Position numbers and translations under genes: made by a program
DNA from: an uncultured Gammaproteobacteria bacterium
Lineage (GTDB): Bacteria; Patescibacteriota; Microgenomatia; UBA8517
Assembly (NCBI GenBank): GCA_964610395.1
Contig: CAZSXP010000001.1
Location: 63,342-127,341 of the forward strand
Direction: 5' to 3'
Length of the DNA stretch: 64,000 nt
In this document: positions 2,340 to 64,000 of the stretch, piece by piece
Layout of the letters: the number at the start of each line of letters is the position of its first letter
Position numbering within the stretch: position 1 is the first letter of the stretch
The notes under the pieces: generated by a model
Seen by the model: the letters and a program-made list of their open reading frames with translations, nothing else
What the model was told of the DNA's origin: nothing
Databases searched by the model: none

Positions 2340-2661
2340 TTCTTAGTGCGGATAAAGTATCTGGTCTATCCATCTCTTCTTTAATTCTTTTTTCTTGTTT
2401 TATTTTTCTTTTTTCAGATTTTGAAATAACCTTTTTTGAAGCGTGTGACAATTTTTGTTTAAAGCTTTCAACTCTTCCTGCAGCATCTAAATATTTCATT
2501 TGACCTGTATAAAACGGATGACAGACAGAACAAACTTCAACGTTAATCTCAGGAGTTGTTGCACCAACTGTGAATGTGTTACCACAAGCACAACTTACTT
2601 TTGCCGTCTTAAACCATTTTGGGTGAAGCGGTATACCGCTGTTATTTATTGTTGCCTTCAT
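2332..2661 (-). CDS. rpmE: 50S ribosomal protein L31 with a ~38-aa Lys-rich C-terminal extension
   Basis: 'CACGNTFTVGATTPEINVEVCSVCHPFYTGQ...GRVESF' matches the L31 CxxC...CxxC fold; ORF runs 109 aa. Confidence 0.8.
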   Translation of the reverse strand: MKATINNSGIPLHPKWFKTAKVSCACGNTFTVGATTPEINVEVCSVCHPFYTGQMKYLDAAGRVESFKQKLSHASKKVISKSEKRKIKQEKRIKEEMDRPDTLSALRNA

Positions 2662-2663
2662 AG

Positions 2664-3551
2664 TTATGTATTATATCTTTTTTTCTTGATCTCGGCAATG
2701 GCTACTCCAATTGCAATTATGACTGCTCCAATTATAAACATGGGTGTGATTTTTTCTCCAAGCCATAAAACAGCGATGGGTAATGAAAAAATTGGATATA
2801 AATAAGAAAATAAACTAGCCTCACCTATCTCAATTGATTTTTGTGCTTTCGTATTTAAGTAAAAGGCGAGTGTTCCAGAAATAATGGCCATGTATAAGAC
2901 ACCAATGTGATATGAAATTGGTGTCGAAATAAGAATTAATAATGAAGAATTAAGAGTTGAAGAAAATAAAACATAAGCACCAAAACAGATAAAGCCTATT
3001 ATGAAAGATATATTGGTCATGGTCATTGGATTAACATCTTTTTTAAGTAAATTTTTAGCTAAAAGAGTTGTAATAACGGTCGAAATTACGTAACCTAAAA
3101 CCAAAAGATTACCAGAAAAATTTAAGGGACCAGTTATTGTTAATGCAGTTCCAAAGATTGCAATTCCCATTCCAATTTTTTCCCTTTTAGTAACATGTTC
3201 ATGCAAGAAGTAAACTCCTACAGTTGAAATAATTAAAGGGCTTGCAAGTGTAATTAATCCAGTTTCTAAAACTGTTGTATTTTCCATACCGAAAAATAAA
3301 AGTCCTAAAGATACCACGGAATTTAAAAAACCATATAAAAGTAAAGTTAAAAATACTCCTATATTTTTAGGAATATGCATACCGTAAGTTGCAAAAATAA
3401 TCACTGCAATTATTGTAGAAATCCCAAATCTATACGTAAGGAATATAGTAGGGGAAAATCCTGCTAATGTGTATTTAATTACAGGCGACGCCACTCCCCA
3501 AATAACACCAACCACAATAAGCATTAAATAGGCGCGAATTCTTGGTGTCAT
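2664..3551 (-). CDS. EamA/DMT-family membrane transporter (10 TM)
   Basis: 295-aa polytopic hydrophobic protein with duplicated 5-TM halves typical of the EamA family. Confidence 0.65.
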   Translation of the reverse strand: MTPRIRAYLMLIVVGVIWGVASPVIKYTLAGFSPTIFLTYRFGISTIIAVIIFATYGMHIPKNIGVFLTLLLYGFLNSVVSLGLLFFGMENTTVLETGLITLASPLIISTVGVYFLHEHVTKREKIGMGIAIFGTALTITGPLNFSGNLLVLGYVISTVITTLLAKNLLKKDVNPMTMTNISFIIGFICFGAYVLFSSTLNSSLLILISTPISYHIGVLYMAIISGTLAFYLNTKAQKSIEIGEASLFSYLYPIFSLPIAVLWLGEKITPMFIIGAVIIAIGVAIAEIKKKRYNT

Positions 3552-4417
3552 ATAAGCTCAATGATACGATCGATTCCAAAAGAAAAACCAACTGCAGGAA
3601 TTTGACGTCCAGCAAACATGCCAATTAAATTATCATATCTTCCGCCACCACCAACTGACAAGTCTTGCGGCATTCCATTTAATTTCATTTCAAAAACGGT
3701 CGAAGTATAATAATCAAGGCCTCTTGCTAAAGTTGGATCAAAAAAGAAATCAACATCTTTTTTTAACTTATAATCGCTTTCTAAAATTTTAAATATTTCC
3801 AATAATCTTGGAGTGGGTGTAGATTTAGCAATAAAGTCTAAAAGACTTTGCGGCATATTTTCTTTGCCAATTTTATACATTTTGTCTATTAATCTTATTT
3901 CATCAATTGAAAGATCTTTAAAATTTTCTCTGTCATTTATAGCAAGGCGTGCCTTGTTGAAGTTCATTGCACGCATACCTTCAATACTTGCTGCAATTAC
4001 TTTTGCGTCGTCGTTTACACTTTCACTTCCAACAATGTCACAATCAAATTGTGTGAATTCTCTCGATCTTCCTTTTTGAGGCTTTTCTCCTCTAAAGACT
4101 TGGCCGATTTGGTATCTTGCAAATGTTGGATTTAATAATCCTAAGTTGTTAGAAACAAATCTTGCCAAGGGAACGGTTAAATCATAACGAAGAGCAAGTT
4201 TTCTTCCACCTCTATCTTCAAAGGTGTAAATTAACTTTTCATCTTCACCATATTTACCAAGTAAAGTTTCTGCAAATTCAATTGTTGGAGTTTCAAGAGG
4301 AGTAAAGTCAAATTTTTCAAGAACAACAGCAATCTTATTAACAAACATCCGGCGTTTTGAAGCCACATCTGGCATCATATCTTGAAAACCTTTAGGTGTT
4401 ACTGGCCCTTTTTGCAT
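3548..4417 (-). CDS. Histidyl-tRNA synthetase-like class II catalytic core (HisZ/HisRS-like), no anticodon-binding domain
   Basis: Motif 2-like 'YQIGQVFRGEKPQKGRSREFTQFDCDIVG', motif 3 'GGGRYDNLIGMFAG...PAVGFSFGIDRI'; ends right after the core at 289 aa. Confidence 0.7.
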   Translation of the reverse strand: MQKGPVTPKGFQDMMPDVASKRRMFVNKIAVVLEKFDFTPLETPTIEFAETLLGKYGEDEKLIYTFEDRGGRKLALRYDLTVPLARFVSNNLGLLNPTFARYQIGQVFRGEKPQKGRSREFTQFDCDIVGSESVNDDAKVIAASIEGMRAMNFNKARLAINDRENFKDLSIDEIRLIDKMYKIGKENMPQSLLDFIAKSTPTPRLLEIFKILESDYKLKKDVDFFFDPTLARGLDYYTSTVFEMKLNGMPQDLSVGGGGRYDNLIGMFAGRQIPAVGFSFGIDRIIELI

Positions 4418-4445
4418 ATATAATTATAATATCATATATTGAATC

Positions 4446-5330
4446 TCATTCTACAGGAGTTAAGATACTTCGTAAAGAAAAGACACCATTTTCATTTGTT
4501 CCAACTATATATATTTCTTGTCCAACTTCTAATTCTTTAATATTTGGACCCTTCCATTTCTTTGGTAATTTAATTTCGTTGATATAACTTTTTGATAATT
4601 TAACAATTTCAATTTTTTCTATCTTTACATTGTTTTCAACTAAAGGGTTTGCAATTAATATTCTTTTAGCAAGTAATACTTTGTTTCCATTAACAAATCC
4701 CATTGCTACAATGTAGTCACCAATTGCAATATCTGTAGATTTAACTTCAGCATTCTTTTTCAAGGTGTTAATATAACTTGTTTCCTCTGCAGTTGACATT
4801 TGTGCAATGTCACCTTTAGCTGTTTTTATTTGAATTGTATTAGAAGAAATATCTGTAACTGTACCAACATATGATGTTGTTTTTAATTTTTCATCTGTTT
4901 TAATGTATTTTCCAAATTCAGTTGAATATACAAGTATTATTTTTTCGACTGCATTGTTAACTGGATCATTTATACTAACTTCAGAAATTCCAGCAGGTAA
5001 ATTTACTTCCATTTCAAATGATCCATCATCATTTGATTTGCCAAAAAAGTCTTCATCGGAAGTGGAGATAATAAGATCGGTGCGTGGTTTTGTTAATCCA
5101 GCAATTTTAACTTGTAGACTAGATATAATATCATAGTCATATAGATTACTAATTGTTAATGAAACTTGATTTTTAGGGGGTGTATCTTTTTTAATATCAA
5201 TAACCTCAGCGTTTTTTTGAATTGCTTTAGTAACTCTCCAAGCTCCAAAAGCAACAATAAGACCAATTGATATACCTGCAATTATTGCAAAGATTATTTC
5301 TTTTCTCATGCAGTGGCTATTAAACCTCAA
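4446..5330 (-). CDS. Hypothetical membrane-anchored, probably extracytoplasmic, protein
   Basis: N-terminal TM ('IIFAIIAGISIGLIVAFGAW'); no recognisable motifs. Confidence 0.45.
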   Translation of the reverse strand: MRFNSHCMRKEIIFAIIAGISIGLIVAFGAWRVTKAIQKNAEVIDIKKDTPPKNQVSLTISNLYDYDIISSLQVKIAGLTKPRTDLIISTSDEDFFGKSNDDGSFEMEVNLPAGISEVSINDPVNNAVEKIILVYSTEFGKYIKTDEKLKTTSYVGTVTDISSNTIQIKTAKGDIAQMSTAEETSYINTLKKNAEVKSTDIAIGDYIVAMGFVNGNKVLLAKRILIANPLVENNVKIEKIEIVKLSKSYINEIKLPKKWKGPNIKELEVGQEIYIVGTNENGVFSLRSILTPVE

Positions 5331-5379
5331 AAACTACCATCTTGTCAAGTAAGACTTAAATAGTTAGAATGACAATACT

Positions 5380-5874
5380 ATGGAAATAGTATATAAAGAT
5401 AATCAATTTAAAATCAAAGGTAAGACAGGAATTCTTTATTCCAAAGCAAATGGAGTATTGATAGAGTCACCAGATGGCAATACTTCAAAGGAATTAAAAG
5501 GAGCTGGGGAATATGAAGTAAGTGGAATCTCAGTTATTGGTGTAAAAACTGAAGAGGGGACAATCTTCGTCTATGAAGTTGATGGATTTAGAATTTGTAA
5601 TTTAGATGGTATAACAAAAAAATTAATAGATAGTAAGTTGTCTCAGATTGGAGATGTTGATATCTTATTAGTTCCTGTTACTTCTGAATCAATTGAAATG
5701 ACCCAACAGCTTGAGAGCTATTACATTATTCCCCTCGGATACAAAAATGAAGAAGAACTTGATAAATTCTTAAAAGAAAGTGGATTAGTTGTTGAAAGAT
5801 TAAGTAAGTTTAGTATCAAAAAAGAAGAACTAATAGAGGACTCAACTGCCCAAATAATAGTACTAAATACTTAA
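5380..5874 (+). CDS. Hypothetical protein, stop/start coupled with dnaB
   Basis: 164-aa ORF ending TAAAATG into dnaB; no family recognised. Confidence 0.4.
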   Translation: MEIVYKDNQFKIKGKTGILYSKANGVLIESPDGNTSKELKGAGEYEVSGISVIGVKTEEGTIFVYEVDGFRICNLDGITKKLIDSKLSQIGDVDILLVPVTSESIEMTQQLESYYIIPLGYKNEEELDKFLKESGLVVERLSKFSIKKEELIEDSTAQIIVLNT

Positions 5875-5875
5875 A

Positions 5876-7198
5876 ATGGCAGATACAAATCAGGTTAGAG
5901 TACCACCACATTCGGTAGAAGCAGAGGAAAGTGTCCTTGGAGCTCTTTTGTTGGATAAAGATGCAGTAATAGCAGTTGCTGAATTTTTATCTCCAGAGGA
6001 TTTCTATGATGAACGCCACAAAGAAATTTATGAAGCAATATTATCTCTTTATGAAGAAAGAACTCCAGTTGATGTATTAACCGTCGCTACGCGCCTAAAA
6101 AAAACAAAAGCGTTAAAAAGAGTAGGTGGTGCGTCATACCTCACAGATATTGCAAATAAAGTCCCAACAGCAGCCCATGTTGAGCATTATGGGAAAATAG
6201 TTAAAGATCAATCAGTTAAAAGATCTTTAATGAAAGCTGCAACAAGATTAGTTGAATTTTCACTTGACGAAGGAATGTCATCAGCTGATTTATTAGATAA
6301 AGCTGAGTCAGAGGTTTTTTCACTTTCACAAAAGAATGTCAAAAAAGAATTTACTTCAGTTAGGGATACCTTAGCAGAAAGTTTTGACAGGCTTGATGAA
6401 CTTCATAAACAAGGAGAGGGTCTAAGAGGAATTGCCACAGGTTTTATTGATCTTGACAGTGCTACCGCAGGATTACAAAAGAGTAATTTAATAATACTTG
6501 CAGGAAGACCTGGTACAGGTAAATCAGCACTTGCAATGAATATTGCTCAATATGCTTCGGTTAAAAACAAAAAGAATGTTGGATATTTCTCACTTGAGAT
6601 GAGTAAGGAGGAATTAGTTGATAGACTTCTTGTTGATGTTGCTGACATAGACGCATGGAGACTTAAAACTGGAAAACTTGATGAAAATGATTTTACAAAA
6701 CTTAGCAAGGCGATGGGGATCTTGGCAGAAGCTTCGCTTTATATTGATGACACACCTGCACTATCAATTTTAGAAATGAGAACAAAAGCAAGAAGACTTC
6801 AAATTGAACATGGATTAGATTTATTAGTTGTTGATTATTTACAACTAGCAAGAAGTAGAAACCTAGAAAATAGAGTACAAGAAGTGGGAGAAATATCACA
6901 AGGCCTTAAAAATCTTGCTAGAGAACTGAAAGTTCCAGTTTTAGCACTTTCTCAGTTGTCAAGAGGTGTAGAGTCAAGAACTATCAAGAGACCTCAACTT
7001 TCTGACCTTCGTGAATCTGGGAGCATCGAACAGGATAGTGACGTTGTTATGTTTATTTGGCGCGAAGAAGATGATAATGTGGAAAATGTAATGCTTGATA
7101 TTGCAAAACATAGAAATGGACCACTTGCCTCTGTTCCATTATTCTTCAAAGGGGATAGAATTAAATTCTTCTCAAGAGACTCAAAACACAAAAAATAA
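5876..7198 (+). CDS. dnaB: Replicative DNA helicase DnaB
   Basis: Walker A 'GRPGTGKSALAMNIA', 'FSLEMS', 'ALSQLSR', N-terminal 'VPPHSVEAEESVLGALL'. Confidence 0.95.
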   Translation: MADTNQVRVPPHSVEAEESVLGALLLDKDAVIAVAEFLSPEDFYDERHKEIYEAILSLYEERTPVDVLTVATRLKKTKALKRVGGASYLTDIANKVPTAAHVEHYGKIVKDQSVKRSLMKAATRLVEFSLDEGMSSADLLDKAESEVFSLSQKNVKKEFTSVRDTLAESFDRLDELHKQGEGLRGIATGFIDLDSATAGLQKSNLIILAGRPGTGKSALAMNIAQYASVKNKKNVGYFSLEMSKEELVDRLLVDVADIDAWRLKTGKLDENDFTKLSKAMGILAEASLYIDDTPALSILEMRTKARRLQIEHGLDLLVVDYLQLARSRNLENRVQEVGEISQGLKNLARELKVPVLALSQLSRGVESRTIKRPQLSDLRESGSIEQDSDVVMFIWREEDDNVENVMLDIAKHRNGPLASVPLFFKGDRIKFFSRDSKHKK

Positions 7199-7204
7199 TT
7201 TTTG

Positions 7205-7288
7205 TGCCGGAGAGAAGATTCGGACTTCCATGACTTTTTAGGTCACACGATTTTGAGTCGTGCGTGTATACCATTCCACCACTCCGGC
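7205..7288 (-). tRNA. tRNA-Leu (anticodon CAA), type II with long variable arm
   Basis: Manual fold: acceptor GCCGGAG/CTCCGGC, D-stem GTG/CAC, anticodon stem CACGA/TCGTG with loop CTCAAAA, variable arm TGAC...GTCA, T-arm GGAAG-TCCGAAT-CTTCT, discriminator A; CCA not encoded. Confidence 0.75.
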
Positions 7289-7331
7289 AATTCTAGTATT
7301 ATACTATTTTTTAAGTTACAATAGCCACAGT

Positions 7332-7904
7332 ATGGCAAATGTTAATGCAACAGAATTAAGAAGTGGGACATCCTTTTTGTATGAAGGTAAACCATTTAAA
7401 GTTACAAAATATCAACTAATTAAAATGGGTAGGGGTGGTGCAACTGTACGTGTAAATTGTGTAAATCTTGAGACGTTTGCCAATGTCGAACATGCTTTTT
7501 CAAGTAATCTTTCTTTTGATTTAATTACTTTAAACAAAAAGAAATTTCAGTATCTATACAAAGATGCTAAAGTTGCCTATTTTATGAATACTGATACTTA
7601 TGAACAAATTGAAGTTCCACTAGCAATTTTAGGAAGCGATGTAAATTATATTAAAGAGGGAGGGGAATGCGATATCTTGTTTTGGGGAGAACGTGCCATG
7701 TCTGTTGATTTGCCTCCGAAGATAACATTAAAAGTAGTTGAATGTGACCCTGGTGTTAAAGGAAATACTGCTAGTAACTATTTAAAATCTGCCACAATGG
7801 AAAATGGACTAACTGTTAAAGTTCCACTTTTTATTAAAGTAGGAGAAATGATAAGAGTAGATACAAGATCAGGTGATTATGTAGAGCGCGCCAAGAATGA
7901 CTAA
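7332..7904 (+). CDS. efp: Elongation factor P
   Basis: 'LRSGTSFLYEGKPFKVTKYQLIKMGRGGATVRV...' aligns to EF-P over its full length; true ATG at 7332, the track ORF starts upstream in the tRNA region. Confidence 0.9.
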   Translation: MANVNATELRSGTSFLYEGKPFKVTKYQLIKMGRGGATVRVNCVNLETFANVEHAFSSNLSFDLITLNKKKFQYLYKDAKVAYFMNTDTYEQIEVPLAILGSDVNYIKEGGECDILFWGERAMSVDLPPKITLKVVECDPGVKGNTASNYLKSATMENGLTVKVPLFIKVGEMIRVDTRSGDYVERAKND

Positions 7905-8306
7905 TATTTGTGTTAAAAGTCCCCAATAAATGTTTGCATCGGATTGAATTGATTTTTGAAAACTAATCCATTTTTTGACAAATTCATTTTTCCACCCAAG
8001 CAAAAAATATGGACCCTCAACAATATCGGGTAAAATAGATGCAAAGGAAGCCAGAAGTATGTTTATATTGCCTTTTGATACAAAAGCAGTTAATACTGCT
8101 GCACAGGCTAGGTCTAATCCGATAATTAATAAAGTTTTGTTTGTTAAATATCCATATTTTTTTGTTTCAGTATTTAGATGGGGATTCCAATGAGGGGTCA
8201 TGTCAAGAACAAAATGACTAGCAAAAGCTAGTGGAATTGAGATAAGAGGATTGGGGACTGCAACGGCAATTGCAATACCTAAGGCTACGTGTGGAGTTTC
8301 TAACAT
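7869..8306 (-). CDS. Membrane protein, possibly DUF457/YdjM-like metal-dependent hydrolase
   Basis: Small polytopic protein with His-containing motifs ('SHFVLDMTPHWNPH'). Confidence 0.4.
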   Translation of the reverse strand: MLETPHVALGIAIAVAVPNPLISIPLAFASHFVLDMTPHWNPHLNTETKKYGYLTNKTLLIIGLDLACAAVLTAFVSKGNINILLASFASILPDIVEGPYFLLGWKNEFVKKWISFQKSIQSDANIYWGLLTQILVILGALYIIT

Positions 8307-8329
8307 TAGATTATGATATTATATAGCTT

Positions 8330-8899
8330 ATGCTAATTGCAAATCTACTGGGCATTTTTGTATTCCTCTTTTCTTTATGGAAGAGATTAAAAGATGATTA
8401 TCATTATGAAAAAGTATTTAATTTAGCTGTATTTATTTTAATTGGATTATCACTTGGTTTTTTTACTAGTTTAAAAATTTTTAATAGTTATTGGTTTTGG
8501 TTAGAAATAATAGGTATTGCCTTAGGTTTTGCAATTGCTATAAAAAGTCAAAAAATTAAATTTATCGAATCATTTGAAGGATTAGTCATTGGTCTTTTAC
8601 CTTGGTTGGGATTTTATCATTTAGCAAATGCTATTTTAACTCATAATTTAATTTCATTTTTATATTTTTGGTTGACTGCAGTTTCTGTCTTTTTATTTTT
8701 CTTTTTGGATGCACAATACAAAAAATTTACATGGTATAAGTCAGGTAGAGTAGGGTTTTCAGGTATAGTAACACTTGCTATCTTTTTTGTGTTAAGAGCA
8801 GGGCTTTTTTATGCAAATATATTTGAAGTAGTTTTATCGTTAACTACATCTTTACTGCTTATTATATTGCTGTATAATCTATCAAGAAATAATGACTAA
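8330..8899 (+). CDS. Hypothetical integral membrane protein
   Basis: 189 aa, multiple TM segments. Confidence 0.4.
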   Translation: MLIANLLGIFVFLFSLWKRLKDDYHYEKVFNLAVFILIGLSLGFFTSLKIFNSYWFWLEIIGIALGFAIAIKSQKIKFIESFEGLVIGLLPWLGFYHLANAILTHNLISFLYFWLTAVSVFLFFFLDAQYKKFTWYKSGRVGFSGIVTLAIFFVLRAGLFYANIFEVVLSLTTSLLLIILLYNLSRNND

Positions 8900-9260
8900 A
8901 ATTTTATTCCCAAAAGACCTTCTTAAACCTGTTGGAGATTTCTTAATGTCTAGCTTAAAAGCATTAAAAATTAGTAAAAAAAATATTTCCTCAGAAGATC
9001 CATTTAATGACAAATCAAGAGATTTAAAATATGCTTCTCCTGATACTGAAGCAGAGGAACAATTTGGGCATGCTAGAGTATCTGCAATCAAAGAAGAATT
9101 AAATCAAAAATCAAAACAAATTAAAAAAGCATTAGAAAGAGTTAGAATTGGTAAATATGGTATTTGTGAGGAATGTGGAAAAATGATTAATACAGATAGA
9201 CTTGCAGTTTTCCCCGAAGCTACAAAATGTATTAAATGTGAGAAAAAGAGAGAGAAATGA
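8892..9260 (+). CDS. DksA/TraR-family C4 zinc-finger protein
   Basis: C-terminal 'CEECGKMINTDRLAVFPEATKCIKCE' zinc finger. Confidence 0.75.
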   Translation: MTKILFPKDLLKPVGDFLMSSLKALKISKKNISSEDPFNDKSRDLKYASPDTEAEEQFGHARVSAIKEELNQKSKQIKKALERVRIGKYGICEECGKMINTDRLAVFPEATKCIKCEKKREK

Positions 9261-32211: not shown

Positions 32212-32388
32212 TTGAAATTAATAAACAAAAATAGAGATTTGAGAGACGCAAAACCAATGATGGAAACCAAAAGTATCAAAATGGAAACATCAGATTGCGA
32301 TACTGCATGTACAAGCGATTGTGCACAAAGTTGTGGATGTGAATCAGATTGTGCAGCAAGCTGTGGTTGCGAAGGGTCAAACGAATAA
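32212..32388 (+). CDS. Cys-rich RiPP precursor peptide (MKLINKNRDLRDAKPMMETKSIKME | TSDCDTACTSDCAQSCGCESDCAASCGCEGSNE)
   Basis: Strong SD AAGGAGGTGA 8 nt before TTG; leader plus core with 8 Cys in repeated SDC/SCGCE motifs; immediately upstream of YcaO. Confidence 0.6.
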   Translation: MKLINKNRDLRDAKPMMETKSIKMETSDCDTACTSDCAQSCGCESDCAASCGCEGSNE

Positions 32389-32396
32389 TACAAAAA

Positions 32397-33743
32397 GTGA
32401 AACTAAATCTATATAGCGAAAGCGAACAAGATATAGATAAGACTTTGTTGTCTTTGTCTTTGCTTGTTAATAAAGACTACGGATTAATTAAGAAAATTAA
32501 ACGTGTACGTCAGTATTATGATGAACCTAAGTTTTGGTATTATTCTGCTGATGTAAACGACTCATATTTAAAGAATGACGGTAGACACTTTCATTCAAAA
32601 TCTTCAGGTGCTTCACTCTATTCGCAAAAGGAAGCCTTATTAAAGTGTTTGTGTGAATTAATGGAGAGATACTGCAATTTCTATTTTAAAAAAGAATCAA
32701 TTGTTACGACTAAATCAATTGATAATATGACTAATAAATTTATTGATCCTAGATCTATGTCAGCTTTTTCCAAGACTCAACTTGAAAAAAATGAATTTAA
32801 AAAATTTAGAATTAACAATAATTCAGTTTTTAGATGGACAAATTGCATTTCACTTTTAGATAATAATGAAGAATATCTAATACCTTCACAATCTATATAT
32901 CTTTCATATCCATATTTAAAAGCTGAACCATCTATTTATTCAGCAATTAGTACTGGTGTAGCAGGTGGAGCAAATCTCTCGGCTGCTATTGTTCGAGGAA
33001 TTTGTGAAGTAATCGAGCGTGATGCATTCATGATTTTTTATCTTAATAAACTTACAGCCTCAAGAATTGATCTTAAGAATATTAATAATCCGGATATTAA
33101 AAATACAATGTCAATTTTAGATAGATATAAATTTGAAGTAGTTGTTCTTGATATTACAACCGATGTTAATGTCCCTACTGTTGCATCGATTATTGTAAAT
33201 CGATCTGGAATCGGTAAAGCTGTATCTGTGGGGTTAAAATGTGACTTTGATATAATCAAAGCAATTACAGGTTCTATTGAAGAAGCACTCCATACTCGGT
33301 CATGGCTTAGATCAAGTTTTGAAGATGAGCCAATTAAAGTTAATCCTCAGGACTTGCAGAAAAGTTCAGATATTAAATTAAGGGGTTTTTTGTGGTACGA
33401 AGCAGAAGCAATTAAAAATATTGATTATTGGATTAAAAATGCAAAGATAAAAGACATTAATTATTCTAGTAAACCGATGAAATCTGGTGAAAAGTTAAAA
33501 AGACTAACTAAAATATTTAGCGATAAAAATTATGAACTATACTATAAAGACATAACCATAAGCGAATTTAAAAAACTTAATTACTATATCGTAAAAGTAA
33601 TTATTCCAAAGATGCAACCAATTTATCTTAATGAAAAATATCCACTATTAGGAAGCGATAGACTGTATAGTGTTCCTGCTAAATTAGGATTTAAAAATAA
33701 ATTAGAGGATGATTTAAATAAATACCCACATCCATTTTTATAG
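32397..33743 (+). CDS. YcaO-domain cyclodehydratase (TOMM 'D' protein)
   Basis: 'HSKSSGASLYSQKEALLKCLCELMERYC' (GxGxT...A..SA..E..ER signature); C-terminal Pro-rich 'KYPHPFL'; start uncertain (GTG 32397; the track ORF begins at TTG 32349 inside the precursor). Confidence 0.8.
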   Translation: MKLNLYSESEQDIDKTLLSLSLLVNKDYGLIKKIKRVRQYYDEPKFWYYSADVNDSYLKNDGRHFHSKSSGASLYSQKEALLKCLCELMERYCNFYFKKESIVTTKSIDNMTNKFIDPRSMSAFSKTQLEKNEFKKFRINNNSVFRWTNCISLLDNNEEYLIPSQSIYLSYPYLKAEPSIYSAISTGVAGGANLSAAIVRGICEVIERDAFMIFYLNKLTASRIDLKNINNPDIKNTMSILDRYKFEVVVLDITTDVNVPTVASIIVNRSGIGKAVSVGLKCDFDIIKAITGSIEEALHTRSWLRSSFEDEPIKVNPQDLQKSSDIKLRGFLWYEAEAIKNIDYWIKNAKIKDINYSSKPMKSGEKLKRLTKIFSDKNYELYYKDITISEFKKLNYYIVKVIIPKMQPIYLNEKYPLLGSDRLYSVPAKLGFKNKLEDDLNKYPHPFL

Positions 33744-33746
33744 AAC

Positions 33747-34523
33747 ATGATAAAAATAAACAATAAAATTGAAAATTTAATTGAATCTGTTGATGAGTTA
33801 TCTAATTCACGAAAATTTCATATATCTACAAATATTGATGATTTTAGAGCGTTTAAGAAAACTCCTCGAGGGTCATGGCCATTAGAATGGAAAAAAGTGT
33901 ATCACAAAGCATATCCTAGGTTTGATCAATTGATTCTACCTACCCCAACAGCAATTAAAATAGATCTTGAAAAAACAATTTTGGAAAGAGAATCATTCAG
34001 AAATTTTACAAACAATAACATAAATCTTAATAAGTTTTCTGATCTTATTTATTATTCTGCTGGGATAAAAGACTCTAATAAAGGTGGTGAAAAAAGAAAT
34101 TATCCATCAGGCGGAGCTAGATATCCATTAGAAGTATATCCAATAGTTTTCAATGTAGATAAAATAAAAAAGGGTATATATCATTATCATGTTAAAACTC
34201 ATTCACTTGAGTGTATATTAGAAAATATTTCAAAAGAAGAAGTTATAAGTCAATTTGATCAACTTTGGATTAAAAAGTCAGCATTGTTATTTATTATTAC
34301 AGCTGTATTTGACAGAACTGAAGTTAAGTATAAAGACAGAGGTTATAGACATATTTTGACAGAGTATGGACATGTAGCTCAAAATCTATATTTAATGGGG
34401 ACTGGATTAGGACTTGGGGTTTGCTCGATTGGTGGATTTAATGACAAAGGAATTAACAAACTACTTGATATCGATGGTCTTGATGAATCTGTCGTGGGAG
34501 TGGTGGCAGTTGGTACAAAATGA
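33747..34523 (+). CDS. SagB-type FMN-dependent dehydrogenase (TOMM 'B' protein, nitroreductase fold)
   Basis: Hallmark 'NYPSGGARYPLEVYPIV'; C-terminal nitroreductase-like region. Confidence 0.8.
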   Translation: MIKINNKIENLIESVDELSNSRKFHISTNIDDFRAFKKTPRGSWPLEWKKVYHKAYPRFDQLILPTPTAIKIDLEKTILERESFRNFTNNNINLNKFSDLIYYSAGIKDSNKGGEKRNYPSGGARYPLEVYPIVFNVDKIKKGIYHYHVKTHSLECILENISKEEVISQFDQLWIKKSALLFIITAVFDRTEVKYKDRGYRHILTEYGHVAQNLYLMGTGLGLGVCSIGGFNDKGINKLLDIDGLDESVVGVVAVGTK

Positions 34524-34546: not shown

Positions 34547-35200
34547 ATGTTTATATTTTTAATTAGACACGCAGAAGGATCAGGTTCAAGAGAAAAATGG
34601 CAAACTCCAGATACTCCACTTAGTGATACAGGGGCAAAACAATCTGAAAACTTAACCACTCTGTCTCGGTTCAAAAAAGTGGATTTAATTCTATCTAGTA
34701 AATGGAAAAGAGCTTTAGAAACGGCAAAAATAGTTTCAAAATTACTTGATAAAAAACTTCTAGAAACTGACGGAATTCAAGAACGTGAGCAACATTCGGA
34801 AATTTATGGTGCTGATAGGCAAAGTGATATAAGTAAGCGCTATAACGATGAGAATATTAAAAATTACAATGATCTTGACTGGAAATTTGAAAATAAGGAA
34901 GAATCAATAAGAGAAGTTTCAGAACGTGCATTTAATTTCAAAAACAGTTTAACATCTAACTATCTAAATAAAAGTATCGTAGTTGTGTCTCATGAAATGT
35001 TTATTAGATGTTTTATTACAAATATTCTATTAGGCGAGAATTATGAAGACAAAGTTTTTAATAAAATTTATAGATCGTTACAACTTATGAATACTGGAGT
35101 GTCGCTGTTGGAGTTTAATGAAAATAGAAAAACTTGGAAAGTATGGTATATAAATGACTTCGCACATTTGGGAAGAATAAAAACGAAAATAAGCAAGTAA
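34547..35200 (+). CDS. Histidine phosphatase superfamily (PGM-like branch) protein
   Basis: N-terminal 'FIFLIRHAEGSG' RHG catalytic motif, 'VVVSHEMFIR'. Confidence 0.65.
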   Translation: MFIFLIRHAEGSGSREKWQTPDTPLSDTGAKQSENLTTLSRFKKVDLILSSKWKRALETAKIVSKLLDKKLLETDGIQEREQHSEIYGADRQSDISKRYNDENIKNYNDLDWKFENKEESIREVSERAFNFKNSLTSNYLNKSIVVVSHEMFIRCFITNILLGENYEDKVFNKIYRSLQLMNTGVSLLEFNENRKTWKVWYINDFAHLGRIKTKISK

Positions 35201-35201
35201 A

Positions 35202-36125
35202 TTAATAATCTTTCCATAACCTTTCACTGTTTATAAATCTCAATACTTTTTTATGAGTTTCTCTGGCTCTTTCAAGGTATCTGGATTTTATGTTTTGTAG
35301 ATAGTCAATTGCCCGAGTAGAAATAAACAATATATAAAATGTCATAACTGATTTTTCAGTATCAGTTAGATCATTTGAATCTAAGTAACCATTAAGAAAT
35401 GCATCAAAATTTTTATTAACTCGATCTGATTTTATTAGATGATACAGATAGTAAGAAACATCGTTTAGTTGAGTCTCTTCCTTCCAATTCCCAAAATCTA
35501 ATAATTTCAATCTATTATCTGTTTTTACGATAGCTTGTCCGTCGTGTATATCATTATGGTTAAAAACTGGAATAGCATTTCCACAATAATTAAGCATCGT
35601 ATCTGAAAGTTTGTTAAGGATAACTTGAGTTTCACTATTTGATTGAAGTTCATTTAATGGGCTACCTAAATATTTACGTAATAATTCTGAATAATATGAA
35701 AAATCAGTTTTACCACTTGAGCTCCATCCAGTTCCTGAAACTGGTACTTTGTCGTGCATGTCTCTAGTTATTTTACCTAAGTCAATTCTTAATCTTGCAT
35801 TGTTACTGGTATATAGTAATTCCCCTTCAATCTTTTCAGAAATAAGCAACTTTTCACCATCTTTATTTTTGGCTAAAGCGTAAGGCTTAGGTACAGATAG
35901 TCCTGCTCCGTATGTCATATTTAATCCCTTCCATTCTCGTTGGGTGCTACCGCTATTAGTAGAAATTTTAATTGCCACTTCAGTTCTAGATTCAGATGTT
36001 GCGTAAAGGATAGAGTTGCCAGTGAATGGTGCAATTTCTTTTTTATGAACATTTAATATGACTTGAGGCACAGAAAACTCTGTATTCCTACTTTCAATTG
36101 GAAAATATGTAATTCTTTCTGACAT
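35202..36125 (-). CDS. APH/choline-kinase-like phosphotransferase
   Basis: Catalytic loop 'HNDIHDGQAIV' (HxDxxxxN) and 'LLDFGNW' (DFG-like); likely start MSERITYF (36125), since the track ORF start falls inside direct repeat 2. Confidence 0.6.
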   Translation of the reverse strand: MSERITYFPIESRNTEFSVPQVILNVHKKEIAPFTGNSILYATSESRTEVAIKISTNSGSTQREWKGLNMTYGAGLSVPKPYALAKNKDGEKLLISEKIEGELLYTSNNARLRIDLGKITRDMHDKVPVSGTGWSSSGKTDFSYYSELLRKYLGSPLNELQSNSETQVILNKLSDTMLNYCGNAIPVFNHNDIHDGQAIVKTDNRLKLLDFGNWKEETQLNDVSYYLYHLIKSDRVNKNFDAFLNGYLDSNDLTDTEKSVMTFYILFISTRAIDYLQNIKSRYLERARETHKKVLRFINSERLWKDY

Positions 36126-36172: not shown

Positions 36173-36404
36173 TTTTATTCTTTCTCAAATGATTGCTGTT
36201 GGTGAAGAAACTGGAAAAATGGAAGAGGTTCTAAAAAAAGTAAGTCATGTTTTTGAAGTTGAGTCAGACCAAAAAGTTAAAACATTAACTGCAGCAATTG
36301 AACCAATTGTCATGGTTCTTTTGGGGTTAGGAGTTGGATTTTTAGTAATTGCAATTATCCTGCCTATTTACAACTTGACGAGTCAATTTTAAGTACTTGA
36401 CAAG
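36173..36404. repeat. 232-bp direct repeat, copy 2 (includes the 67-aa pilC 3'-fragment ORF 36189..36392); right boundary of the island
   Basis: The ORF-track protein at 36189..36392 is identical to the PilC C-terminus; the TTGACA at its end serves as the -35 for pilA. Confidence 0.9.
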
Positions 36405-36437
36405 GGTTTTTTAGTAGCATATTGTTATATATAGAGT

Positions 36438-60211: not shown

Positions 60212-61306
60212 ATGACAAAATTGTATTTTTACAACAATAATTGGGAGTTTTTTGAAAAGAATAACAAATATTATTTTTTTGACGTAGTTACAACAAAACT
60301 TCTCGAACTTGTAATAAAGGAGAAAGAGGAAAAAGTAGCTCTTTTATTTCTTATAAGGGAAGCTTCAAAGCCATCTGAAAAAGAAAACTTAATTTTTAAG
60401 CTCCATAAGAATTTCCCAAAAATAAATATAGATTGGATAAACACTACGTTCAATAATTTATCGAAGGTAGGAGTTCTTAAGGTTGCACTCTCGACTCCAC
60501 AAGAGTTCAAAGGTAGGTATGTTTTGGGTCTTGAGCGTCAATTAGAATTTCTCAATGAAGTTTTTCCAGAACAAGGCAAGTTTAAAATGCAAAAAAAACT
60601 TAAGGATGCAAAAATAACAGTTATTGGGCTGGGTATAGTAGGCCAATCAGTTCTTGTTCCTCTTCTTGCTTCAGGAATAGGCAATTTAACATGCATTGAC
60701 TTTGACACAGTTGAAGAAAGAAACATAGGTAGACAAATTCTCTTTCGCAGAGGTGATAACGGAAAACCAAAAACAGAAGTAATTAAACGATTTATTGTTG
60801 AGAATTATTCGGCAGTTAAGATTAAGACAATAAATAAAAAACTAGACAATGTAAGAAGTATCAAAGCCGCCATAAATGGATCTGATATTGTCATACAATG
60901 TTGTGATTTCCCTCGATATATTATTCACAGACTTATTAACAAAGCGTGTCTTGATCTGAAAATACCCAATCTTCTTCTTGGGTCCTACAGGGCAGGACCT
61001 TTTTGTTTGCCTCACAAAACAGCTTGTTATGGTTGTCTTGAAACTTTACTTAGAGAAAATATGCCTATTTACGATGAAGTTGTTGAAAGGATTTTCAGTC
61101 AAGGAACAAGAAGATTTCCACAACTTATTATAACATCACTTCTTACTGGTGCGCTTGGAGCTAAGGAAATTATAACTTTCTTACTTGACTTACCCACCCA
61201 GACAATCGACGGGTGTCTTCATTTCAATCCTAGAACATTGGAGGTAACCAGAGAACCAATACCAAGACAAAAGAATTGTTATGCTTGTTCCTCTAATGCA
61301 AAATAA
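60212..61306 (+). CDS. E1-like (ThiF/MoeB/MccB-like) enzyme with ~130-aa N-terminal putative peptide-binding domain
   Basis: 'VIGLGIVGQSV' GxGxxG, 'DFDTVEERNIGRQ', C-terminal CxxC...CxxC ('CYGC','CYAC'); start at internal ATG (MTKLYF). Confidence 0.75.
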   Translation: MTKLYFYNNNWEFFEKNNKYYFFDVVTTKLLELVIKEKEEKVALLFLIREASKPSEKENLIFKLHKNFPKINIDWINTTFNNLSKVGVLKVALSTPQEFKGRYVLGLERQLEFLNEVFPEQGKFKMQKKLKDAKITVIGLGIVGQSVLVPLLASGIGNLTCIDFDTVEERNIGRQILFRRGDNGKPKTEVIKRFIVENYSAVKIKTINKKLDNVRSIKAAINGSDIVIQCCDFPRYIIHRLINKACLDLKIPNLLLGSYRAGPFCLPHKTACYGCLETLLRENMPIYDEVVERIFSQGTRRFPQLIITSLLTGALGAKEIITFLLDLPTQTIDGCLHFNPRTLEVTREPIPRQKNCYACSSNAK

Positions 61307-62522
61307 TCAAAAGATTCGGCTTATCGTACAACCCAGAGAAAACAACAGAAGCTATCTGTACGATTATCATTCACACATTGAAATTAATGAAAAAGAACAT
61401 CCGTTCGGGAAAGGCGGAGGAATAGACTTGGATCTTAAAATAGCAAAACTAAAAGCGACCTGTGAAGCTATCGAAAGATATGCAGGAAGTGTGATCCCAG
61501 ATCAGACATATATAAAAAGTTCATACAACGAAATTAAAAGCGAGGCAATCAATCCAAAAAGACTAATCGATTTTGATTCTTTGCAATATACAGAAGCTTT
61601 TCCATTCTCTAGATTTCGGCCAAATACCAAAATTGATTGGGTAAAGGCGTTTTCGGTAACGAAAAATAGGAATGTGTTAATTCCTGCTTCTGCAATTTTT
61701 CTCGGATATAATGCAATAATACCTAAAAAATTACGGTTATTTCCAACAACATCAAACGGTCTTGCTTTGGGGACTTCTGGAAAAGATGCTTTTAGAAGAG
61801 GTTTGTATGAATTAATTGAAAGGGATGCCGCTTTGACACTTTGGTATACACAGAGAATTCCCATTCGCGTTAATCTTGATTCGTTATCTAATTCAGACTT
61901 TCATTTTATTAAAAATAAAATCATAGATGAAGGTTTGATTCTCGAAGTTTGTATTTCCACTTTCGACATTCCAATCCCTTCCACAATCGCAATAATTAGA
62001 GATATAAAAGGATATCCTGCTTTTAGTGTTGGATTGGGATGTGATAATAATTTAGAGAAGGCTGTTTTTAAAGCAACAATGGAAGCTTTAATGGTAAGAA
62101 ATACACTTGAATTATTACCTAAAGATATGCGGGTAAATATTAAAATTAAAAGAAGAAGTGTAAAGAATTTTATGGATCATGCTCTGTATTATTCCACTCT
62201 GTCAAAAGAGAAAGTAATAAGAAAACTTTACTCTGGGAAAAAATTGACCATAGCTAAAATTAATTCCAAATTCGGGTTAAGTGAAAAGTATTCTGATTTA
62301 GATACCCTGATTGCTTTGTTCACCAGAAAGAACATGGAGATAATAAAATATGATTTAACCACCCCAATAATAAGTGATATGGGTTATTCGGTAGTAAAAA
62401 CAATAGTTCCTGAATTGCAACAAATGGATATTAGCTACGAAGCAAGATTCCTGAGAAGTAATAGGTTAACTGGTTTAGTTTCTTCTAAAAAAATAAATCC
62501 ATACCCACACCCGTTCGGGTGA
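61296..62522 (+). CDS. YcaO-domain protein (second copy)
   Basis: 'FGKGGGIDLDLKIAKLKATCEAIERYAG' signature; C-terminal 'NPYPHPFG' PxPxP motif. Confidence 0.8.
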   Translation: MQNNQKIRLIVQPRENNRSYLYDYHSHIEINEKEHPFGKGGGIDLDLKIAKLKATCEAIERYAGSVIPDQTYIKSSYNEIKSEAINPKRLIDFDSLQYTEAFPFSRFRPNTKIDWVKAFSVTKNRNVLIPASAIFLGYNAIIPKKLRLFPTTSNGLALGTSGKDAFRRGLYELIERDAALTLWYTQRIPIRVNLDSLSNSDFHFIKNKIIDEGLILEVCISTFDIPIPSTIAIIRDIKGYPAFSVGLGCDNNLEKAVFKATMEALMVRNTLELLPKDMRVNIKIKRRSVKNFMDHALYYSTLSKEKVIRKLYSGKKLTIAKINSKFGLSEKYSDLDTLIALFTRKNMEIIKYDLTTPIISDMGYSVVKTIVPELQQMDISYEARFLRSNRLTGLVSSKKINPYPHPFG

Positions 62523-62827: not shown

Positions 62828-64000
62828 TTAGATTAAATCTCCAGTAATAATAGTTATTGGAGAAATTGAAACTATTTCGTCAATCATCTTATTTAAATCA
62901 TCTGAGGATACAGATAGCATTTCTTCTCTTATTTTATCTGCATCAATAATCTCACCATACATTTTTAATCCATGAGTGACCCAATCAAGTCTATCTTGAA
63001 CACTAAAAGGGGTAGCCAATTGTCTTTTATGCTCAAGCTCAACTGCATTTTTGGTAATTGTTTTAATTGAACTCAAAATTTCAGTAATTCCAGAATCCAA
63101 ATTCTTATTGTTATCTTTTTTAACATCAACTCTTAAATTAAGTATGGCTATGTTATCCGTTGGTCTTGCTATACCCACCTCTGTAAAATAACCCCAACCA
63201 TTTTTTCTCGAATAATTAAAAAGCTCTGTGGATATTATGTTTTTTAAGTATTTAAGTGAGAAATATTTTTTTGATCCAAATTTGTGTTTAAATAACCAGT
63301 TGAACTGATTAGTAATTATTCCATTCTTTATATTGGTATCAAACTTGTAATTATTTTCAACTTCTAATTCTGGATTTGTTTTCTCTAATAATTCAGTATC
63401 AATAATATTTTTTGGTTTATCAATCCTTGGAAAATCTAAATATTGATCTTTTAGTTTATCAATTAAATTTTTAAGTATTGAACGATCCCCTTCTGTGTAT
63501 ACACTTATTAAAAGATTTTTTGGTATTAAAATATTCTCTTGTATCTTTTTTAATTGGCTTATTGTAATTTTGTCTAAATCTTCTACTGATCCAGCAGTTG
63601 TTGATATGTCAGAAAATGGGTTTTTAGTATCGTAAATAGTTTTGCAGAAATTATTATCGATGTGATAATTATGATTTGTTGATCGACCTTGAATTTCTGA
63701 CTTAATGATATTTCTTTCGGTTTCAATATCCTTCACAACATCATCCAAATTGTTAAGTGGTGCCTCAAGTGACTTTCTTATTCCATCTAAAACTACCCAT
63801 AGTCCATAATCTACTACATTTGGATTTGCGATTCCTGAGATAGTTTCACGAGTTTCTTGTTTATTAGTTTGAGCAATTAATTTAAGTGAATTACGCTCAG
63901 CTAATAATCTTATCCTTTTATTGAAAAAATGTTCTAAAAAATGCACAGAGCCAGCAGGATTTCCATACGCACCTTCAGAAAATTCCCAATAAATTCTTGC
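62828..64000 (-). CDS. M16-family zinc peptidase, 5'-truncated by the window edge (GTG at 63946 is not the true start)
   Basis: 'GSVHFLEHFF' inverted zincin HxxEH; the reading frame stays open to the window end. Confidence 0.7.
   Translation of the reverse strand, partial: ARIYWEFSEGAYGNPAGSVHFLEHFFNKRIRLLAERNSLKLIAQTNKQETRETISGIANPNVVDYGLWVVLDGIRKSLEAPLNNLDDVVKDIETERNIIKSEIQGRSTNHNYHIDNNFCKTIYDTKNPFSDISTTAGSVEDLDKITISQLKKIQENILIPKNLLISVYTEGDRSILKNLIDKLKDQYLDFPRIDKPKNIIDTELLEKTNPELEVENNYKFDTNIKNGIITNQFNWLFKHKFGSKKYFSLKYLKNIISTELFNYSRKNGWGYFTEVGIARPTDNIAILNLRVDVKKDNNKNLDSGITEILSSIKTITKNAVELEHKRQLATPFSVQDRLDWVTHGLKMYGEIIDADKIREEMLSVSSDDLNKMIDEIVSISPITIITGDLI

Follow-up and report, generated by a model that had tools for sequence, protein, structure and literature searches.

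We analyzed a 64,000-nucleotide (nt) window of contig CAZSXP010000001.1 from an uncultured bacterium placed in Patescibacteriota (assembly GCA_964610395.1); the window is the whole stretch of DNA studied, and all positions refer to it. The subject of this work is a 58-residue open reading frame (ORF) on the forward strand (32212–32388, TTG start, TAA stop at 32386–32388), which adjoins a gene for a YcaO cyclodehydratase. This ORF is a real gene that is conserved and under selection. As judged from its sequence and its neighbors, it probably encodes the precursor (A) peptide of a ribosomally made linear azole-containing peptide (LAP), or thiazole/oxazole-modified microcin (TOMM).

Precursor Peptide

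The translation of 32212–32388, with TTG read as Met, is LKLINKNRDLRDAKPMMETKSIKMETSDCDTACTSDCAQSCGCESDCAASCGCEGSNE, exactly as given in the initial annotation of this DNA. Eight Cys residues lie within the final 33 residues of the peptide. The background frequency of Cys, calculated from ten long ORFs of this window of 33% guanine plus cytosine (GC), is 0.6%, and the binomial probability of finding at least eight Cys in 33 residues is approximately 2e-11. In the presumed core, TSDCDTACTSDCAQSCGCESDCAASCGCEGSNE (32287–32385), the eight Cys are spaced by 4, 4, 4, 2, 4, 4, and 2. The residues preceding them are D, A, D, S, G, D, S, and G, in agreement with the earlier description of each Cys as following Ser, Asp, Gly, or Ala, and the quasi-repeats of the core (SDCAQSCGCE/SDCAASCGCE) correspond to a tandem unit in the DNA with a period of 30 nt and 1.9 copies at 32317–32373. 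Residues 8–15 (32233–32256) form the motif RDLRDAKP, which aligns with the leaders of relatives and is the presumed recognition sequence. The 58-residue peptide matched no family in Pfam and NCBIfam. An antisense ORF of 69 residues at 32184–32393 is a shadow of the Cys codons of the precursor.

We fetched 79 loci from a dereplicated genome collection with a YcaO profile, which gave 80 loci including the window (related loci are denoted by L numbers). Sixty-six of the 80, from Patescibacteria and DPANN, have no gene for a C protein, and this set was used for the precursor counts. The search for Cys-rich peptides beside YcaO genes that had been suggested with the initial annotation found a Cys-rich small ORF ending 2–84 nt upstream of YcaO in approximately 40 of the 66 loci. 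Nearly all of the homologous precursor ORFs have a GGAGGTGA-type Shine-Dalgarno (SD) sequence 5–8 nt ahead of the start. The related precursors possess a leader of approximately 25–35 residues with one conserved motif, which reads hxDAKEF in 16 loci and RDLxDAxP, or a close variant, in the subclade of the window (alignment A3); RDLRDAKP of the window aligns with RDLxDAxP in L017–L020. The cores are hypervariable among the relatives, being Cys/Pro-rich (CKPPPC...), Cys/Gly/Ser-rich, or acidic and Cys/Ser-rich as in the window. A leader that is conserved while the core varies, together with a fixed place beside modifying enzymes, is the standard signature of a precursor of peptides that are made by the ribosome and modified post-translationally (RiPPs).

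The close relatives L015, L016, and the short contigs L012/L013 keep the precursor ORF. L015, which is on the same Hainich-aquifer contig as L009, and L016 exhibit YcaO identities of 81–82% and keep all eight Cys, as does L012; the peptide of L012/L013 (P0002) is 68% identical to that of the window with all eight Cys retained. The precursor genes of the window and L015 differ by 14 synonymous and 2 non-synonymous codons, and the changes in codons 1–15 between close relatives are synonymous or conservative. The precursor ORF is under purifying selection. Conservation in related loci, on which the initial annotation had made the gene depend, was thus found in close relatives and, as a family sharing a leader, in distant ones.

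The ORF might instead be no RiPP precursor at all, either a chance ORF that is not translated or an unmodified, metallothionein-like Cys-rich metal binder, and Cys-rich acidic peptides can indeed bind metals. We consider this extremely improbable, because the strict placement beside YcaO and SagB genes in approximately 40 loci, the conservation of the leader while the cores vary, the purifying selection, and the apparent movement of the ORF with the enzymes inside a mobile cassette all speak against it.

A profile built from 26 aligned precursors was searched against 5.8 billion proteins and gave only 15 matches, a result that could not measure the size of the family. All of the matches were unnamed or labeled “hypothetical protein”, and the precursor family is therefore unannotated in public databases. 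Two apparent variants were rejected. P0004 was considered as a frameshifted precursor, but its locus, L014 (ERZ1286166 contig_3538), belongs to an error-prone assembly of long reads, with frameshifts breaking every gene; the N-terminus TREVIK of P0002 was considered as a translated SD sequence, but the DNA shows a normal ATG start behind an SD sequence. L011, a 2.3-kb contig with a coverage of 2, has the precursor and only the initial ~60 codons of YcaO, after which comes a gene annotated as fibrillarin-like; it is probably a chimeric or rearranged low-coverage contig.

Translation Starts of the Precursor and YcaO Genes

The mechanical ORF begins at TTG 32173 and has 71 residues, over-extending the precursor upstream as had been stated in the initial annotation. 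The SD sequence AAGGAGGTGA, identified by sequence match at 32197–32206 on the forward strand, is separated from TTG 32212 by 5 nt when the whole 10-mer is taken and by 8 nt, the spacing reported earlier, when counted from its GGAGG core. At the position where the window, L015, and L016 have TTG, the homologous ORFs in L012, L017–L021, and L023 have ATG, equally spaced from the same SD sequence. The strong SD sequence and the leader motif shared among the related ORFs therefore fix the start at TTG 32212, the codon originally proposed.

Translation from the internal ATG at 32257 or 32260 would give a peptide of 42–43 residues whose leader is very short. As a start codon, ATG is better than TTG, and one public gene call, in a Hainich relative (P0003), uses an internal ATG (MMETK... 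start). We regard this start as very unlikely. No SD sequence lies ahead of either ATG, and the 15 codons at the beginning of the longer frame change only synonymously or conservatively between close relatives. Moreover, RDLRDAKP is conserved at the protein level at 40–50% YcaO identity and aligns with the leader motif of the family; because this conserved motif lies upstream of both ATGs, neither of them is the start.

A promoter-like site composed of TTGACT, a 16-nt spacer, and a TG-extended TATAGT is present at 32140–32167 on the forward strand (consensus match at 10 of 12 positions plus TG). The site is identical in L015, and TTGACA-17-TATAAT-like sites occur at the same place in L016–L020. 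This site would place the start of the transcript at approximately 32175, downstream of TTG 32173.

The YcaO gene starts with GTG at 32397, 8 nt after the precursor stop codon, and no SD sequence was found ahead of this GTG. L015, L016, and L012 retain its AAAGTGA(A/T)A context, the longer frame from TTG 32349 would be broken in L016 by a 1-nt indel shortly before the YcaO start, and public gene calls give the same YcaO of 448 residues. GTG 32397, which the initial annotation had regarded as the probable start, is therefore well supported. The tight spacing of the two genes described there also holds for the window, but the gap is not family-wide (2–84 nt), and the co-translation derived from it is something that we infer. 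Since the GTG has no preceding SD sequence, re-initiation after the precursor stop codon is a plausible way in which YcaO is translated.

Modifying Enzymes

The YcaO protein (32397–33743, forward strand; PF02624, 1.4e-55) belongs to the SagD subfamily, with a score of 281.4 bits against TIGR03604 (trusted cutoff, 219.25). It is followed by a 258-residue SagB-type flavin mononucleotide (FMN) dehydrogenase (33747–34523, forward strand), which scored 163.7 bits against TIGR03605 (cutoff, 78.4). The neighbors of the precursor are thus the YcaO/dehydrogenase pair that had been assumed from the sequence, and the two genes are adjacent in 76 of the 80 loci. Genes identical to those of the window were found on groundwater metagenome contigs, and the nearest YcaO relatives are labeled Candidatus Woesebacteria or Patescibacteria; the window is thus from a bacterium of the candidate phyla radiation (CPR). 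A scan of viral contigs with YcaO gave one distant, irrelevant match, and typical phage cargo was rejected as a description of the cassette.

The AlphaFold2 model of YcaO (predicted local distance difference test score, 92.9) consists of the plain YcaO domain only, without an extra domain, and its best match in the PDB is LynD (4v1v), with a template modeling (TM) score of 0.79 for the entire chain. All members of the YcaO family have ExxER and ExxERD. The protein ends in ...YPHPFL, and family members show (nearly) no variation at P444, H445, P446, F447, and L448, giving P-x-P with Leu at the final position. A PxPxP motif was reportedly defined for azoline-forming YcaO proteins by Dunbar et al. 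in 2014. A C-terminus of the PxPxP type is also mentioned elsewhere (PMC8442711). In the SagB-type protein, K194-Y195 align with Lys201-Tyr202 of McbC, the catalytic pair of that enzyme (PMC6395948). The family membership of the two proteins and their conserved catalytic residues point to azole chemistry.

Other outcomes of amide activation have to be weighed against this assignment. YcaO could make a thioamide, an amidine, or azolines only, with the nitroreductase-fold protein in a structural or other role, as suggested for AmiE in streptamidine. Standalone YcaO proteins are known to make amidines and thioamides, and a dehydrogenase that is essential yet leaves no net oxidation has been described (PMC8442711). 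Against these precedents, the YcaO of the window scores above the trusted cutoff of the SagD azole-forming subfamily, the SagB-type protein retains the Lys-Tyr pair, the cores are dominated by Cys, the best nucleophile for azoline formation, and none of the five proteins of the cassette matched TfuA in Pfam and NCBIfam. These points make the other outcomes quite unlikely, and azole formation by YcaO and SagB is the chemistry that we adopt below.

Leader Recognition

Canonical azole synthetases contain a third component, an E1-like C protein or an Ocin-ThiF-like F protein, whose RiPP recognition element (RRE) binds the leader (PMC6395948; PMC4603692). When all ORFs in the 80 loci were clustered, just 14 loci proved to have a C protein directly upstream of YcaO; these are the most distant ones (YcaO identity ≤37%) and derive from Prevotella, Nostoc, Nitrospinota, and one Aenigmatarchaeota. 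Three representatives were confirmed by NCBIfam as “TOMM precursor leader peptide-binding protein” (TIGR03882). A hidden Markov model (HMM) of the C protein, built from these 14 sequences, which were validated as TIGR03882/TIGR03603, recovered all 14. For the 66 loci it had no match in the ~6 kb around YcaO, the cassette of the window included, except for two weak haloarchaeal matches. An RRE fused to YcaO or SagB was considered and rejected: the YcaO model shows no domain to house it, and the N-terminal ~70–90 residues of the SagB-type protein are equaled in length by McbC. Since neither the cluster of the window nor the 65 related loci have an E1-like or RRE partner near YcaO, the leader would be recognized directly by the enzyme pair. 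We hold this partner-free recognition to be the most likely arrangement, with modest confidence.

The same peptide and chemistry could also be served by a canonical BCD complex whose C protein is encoded elsewhere. The window encodes an E1/ThiF-like (C-type) protein of 374 residues (60182–61306, forward strand) that scored 95.8 bits on the C-protein HMM and gave sub-threshold matches to SagC/TIGR03882; this protein would then act in trans on the YcaO at 32397. Characterized azole-forming YcaO proteins depend on such partners (PMC6395948; PMC4603692). However, its gene overlaps by 26 nt a second SagD-type YcaO gene (61281–62522, forward strand; 413 residues; TIGR03604, 249 bits; C-terminus PYPHPFG), with which it evidently pairs, 28 kb from the first YcaO. 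The region 60182–62522 is a separate canonical C-D pair. In addition, a C gene is absent from the surrounding ~6 kb in all 66 loci of the clade, whereas the distant relatives keep C immediately upstream of YcaO, and the cassette appears to be mobile and self-contained in four genomic contexts. The clade-wide absence of the C gene and the self-contained mobile cassette argue against a C protein acting in trans, which we judge to be rather improbable, and direct recognition of the leader by YcaO and SagB is retained in the following.

The second YcaO locus has no SagB beside it. Methyltransferase, LD-carboxypeptidase-like, and S51-like peptidase genes lie upstream and an M16-like gene downstream, with neighbors at 57192–59816 and 62828–63946 (−), and no obvious Cys-rich precursor was seen in the 366-nt gap ahead of the locus. 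In six loci of DPANN archaea (L048, L049, L050, L055, L069, and L078), a family of proteins of ~160–210 residues flanks YcaO–SagB, sometimes on both sides. These proteins matched no NCBIfam family and may be an archaeal accessory or partner protein. The Nostocales loci L084, L087, and L093, which have the canonical C, D, and B genes, carry precursors ~1.3 kb upstream with cores of GCGRCF/GCGGC repeats, such as GNCGRCFGCGRCFGCGRCFGCGRCSGCGRCGRCGGCGKCHGCG.

The Five-Gene Cassette

The precursor, YcaO, and SagB genes are followed by two others. A histidine phosphatase superfamily protein of 217 residues is encoded at 34547–35200 on the forward strand (PF00300, 1.5e-27), and an APH/CotS-like kinase at 35202–36125 on the reverse strand, convergent with the operon (PF01636, 26.5 bits; 307 residues by public gene calls, in L001, with the ORF extending to 36188). 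Upstream of the five genes lie pilB, pilT, and pilC, and downstream lie pilin genes. A direct repeat of 241 nt with 97% identity encloses exactly the five genes, its copies being 4291 nt apart. The left copy (31882–32122) is formed by the 3′ end of pilC plus 21 nt, and the right copy (36173–36413) holds a 67-residue ORF (36189–36392) that is 100% identical to residues 335–401 of PilC. A 20-nt near-copy of the pilC end (ACTTGACAAGCCAATTTTAA) occurs immediately after the pilC stop codon.

Related genomes present the same genes in other settings. In L009 (4748–14138), from a metagenome-assembled genome of the Hainich aquifer, three copies of the pilC 3′ end bound two tandem islands, one of which is the YcaO cassette; these islands suggest that the 3′ end of pilC is an insertion hotspot. 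The other island carries NUDIX, GDPD, and choline-kinase-like genes, a DIT1_PvcA-family gene, and a gene for a 409-residue protein of unknown type. In L016, a 94-nt repeat derived from a different locus borders the five cassette genes. In L020 (OZ246419.1, an 810-kb chromosome; 2512–9771), these genes have tRNA-Val on one side and, on the other, a 50-nt repeat that copies the tRNA 3′ end perfectly, in the order tRNA-Val, tyrosine integrase (PF00589), a 581-residue protein without a family, the cassette, and the 50-nt repeat. No recombinase gene was found inside the cassette of the window. The GC content of the cassette (0.29–0.32) compared with that of the flanks (0.33–0.35) is weak evidence for a foreign origin. 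The presence of the same five genes in four independent insertion contexts, from which the boundaries of the cassette were drawn, indicates that they behave as one unit, and the five-gene cassette appears to be mobile. Their apparent joint movement is a further argument for counting the kinase and the phosphatase as parts of the system.

The phosphatase is located together with YcaO–SagB in nine loci, at YcaO identities down to 35%, and the phosphatase and the kinase are conserved together in the window, L015–L020, L079, and, in degraded form, L057. A sequence search of the PDB with the kinase gave nothing significant. APH-type kinases occur in other RiPP pathways and in antibiotic self-resistance. 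The two enzymes may phosphorylate and dephosphorylate the peptide or the product, which is speculative.

These two genes fill the slot after SagB where most of the relatives have an M16 peptidase. The M16 (insulinase-family) gene directly follows SagB in 23 related loci (L026–L059), is the third most conserved gene of the YcaO–SagB neighborhood, and never occurred alongside the C protein in the loci sampled. It is likely the leader peptidase of the wider family. No peptidase gene is present within the cluster of the window. An M16 peptidase with an HFFEH motif (26797–28212, reverse strand; Pfam M16) lies 4.1 kb upstream, outside the repeat-bounded cassette, and is absent from the equivalent position in L009. 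Its identity to the cluster-linked M16 proteins is 28–30%, and the median pairwise identity among the latter is 29%; this equal similarity neither links it to the cassette nor excludes it. The enzyme is a possible leader peptidase acting in trans, with a weak link to the cassette.

Comparison with Known Systems

The cluster of the window joins the LAP clusters already known bioinformatically in CPR genomes and is not a new system. The sections of Sharrar et al. 2020 (mBio, PMC7298704) considered here describe a Microgenomates LAP cluster with YcaO, a nitroreductase, a peptidase, and an adjacent precursor, and count 110 such clusters in CPR genomes, 89 of them with a nitroreductase beside YcaO. 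The window likewise has the precursor, YcaO, and a nitroreductase-type dehydrogenase side by side, as in these Microgenomates/Parcubacteria genomes, and the wider family of 23 loci with the order precursor, YcaO, SagB, and M16 matches the figure of that paper. The subclade of the window differs from the layout drawn there in having the histidine phosphatase and the APH-like kinase where the peptidase stands. Within the same sections, no mention was met of an absent E1-like partner, a shared leader motif, or mobility of the cassette.

As in microcin B17 (McbBCD and McbA), a YcaO protein (McbD) and a SagB-type dehydrogenase (McbC) with a conserved catalytic Lys-Tyr pair accompany a leader-bearing peptide, and the SC and GC motifs of the McbA-type core become thiazoles and oxazole-thiazole pairs (PMC6395948). 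The protease that cuts off the microcin B17 leader is not encoded within the cluster (PMC6395948). In contrast to microcin B17, the cassette has no counterpart of McbB, the E1-like RRE leader clamp, and no export or immunity genes; its core is acidic (D/E-rich), whereas that of McbA is Gly-rich, and its leader has DAKP/DAKEF as the motif in place of FxxxL. In structure, McbD resembles the YcaO of the window only distantly (TM score, 0.60).

A SagD-subfamily YcaO, a SagB-family dehydrogenase, and a Cys/Ser/Thr-rich core are shared with TOMMs of the streptolysin S type (SagBCD). The TOMM classes of Cox et al. 2015 (PMC4603692) are defined by a discrete or fused C or F protein, and the cassette encodes neither. 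The YcaO proteins of bottromycin provide a precedent for action on a peptide without an E1-like or TfuA partner (PMC8442711; PMC4603692). They belong, however, to a YcaO clade different from that of the window, make a single thiazoline and a macroamidine, recognize a follower peptide, and work without a SagB-type partner. Among the cyanobactin enzymes (LynD/TruD and ThcOx/CyaGox), LynD is the best structural match to YcaO and CyaGox is a close sequence match to the dehydrogenase domain (3e-17). LynD and CyaGox carry fused N-terminal RRE/E1-like domains, whereas the proteins of the window consist of the catalytic domains only.

Proposed Pathway

In the pathway that we propose, the precursor would have a promoter of its own, and the near-perfect SD sequence ahead of TTG 32212 would make its translation efficient. 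YcaO would be made at a lower level from its GTG, which has no SD sequence and lies 8 nt past the precursor stop, probably by re-initiation. The N-terminal ~25 residues would act as the leader, with RDLRDAKP (hxDAKEF in most relatives) as the putative recognition element, and the enzyme pair would recognize it directly with no partner protein. With ATP, YcaO would convert the eight Cys to azolines by cyclodehydration, possibly along with the neighboring Ser/Thr of SC pairs; these azolines would be oxidized to thiazoles or oxazoles by the SagB-type FMN dehydrogenase. The leader would be removed by a protease encoded elsewhere, and the histidine phosphatase and APH-like kinase might, speculatively, add and remove phosphate groups, either as a tailoring step on the peptide or to protect the producer. 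The five genes would make up one discrete cassette capable of horizontal movement, which in the window was inserted at the pilC 3′ end.

Several points weigh against parts of this proposal. Canonical azoline-forming YcaO proteins need an E1-like or Ocin-ThiF-like partner, which the cluster does not have, and the E1-like protein beside the second YcaO (60182–62522) might act in trans. The YcaO C-terminus is PHPFL and not a full PxPxP, the promoter is a consensus match only, and the cassette is without a protease, transporter, or recognizable immunity gene. The roles given to the kinase and the phosphatase are guesses. The complete picture, in which a minimal, partner-free azole synthetase reads DAKP/DAKEF without an RRE, a kinase/phosphatase step is included, and the cassette moves among the 3′ ends of CPR genes (pilC, tRNA-Val, and others), is accordingly offered as a tentative and rather doubtful one. 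To our knowledge, tailoring or self-protection based on phosphorylation is not known for azole peptides.

Biological Implications

The genomes of CPR bacteria are tiny, few natural-product pathways are known from them, and we know of no CPR RiPP that has been characterized. The cassette of ~4 kb, with its clear boundaries and a defined precursor, start codon, and leader motif, lends itself in practice to heterologous expression. Should YcaO and SagB suffice to install azoles, the pair would be the smallest known azole synthetase and would show recognition of a leader without an RRE, which would be useful for peptide engineering. The hypervariable cores, Cys/Pro-rich or Cys/Gly-rich in relatives and acidic and Cys/Ser-rich in the window, suggest a large unexplored chemical family. 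The finding is valuable not as a new type of system but as a compact, well-delimited RiPP cassette of CPR bacteria in which the usual leader-binding partner may be missing. Candidate roles of such peptides in episymbiotic lifestyles are those of an antibiotic, a signal, or a metal binder.

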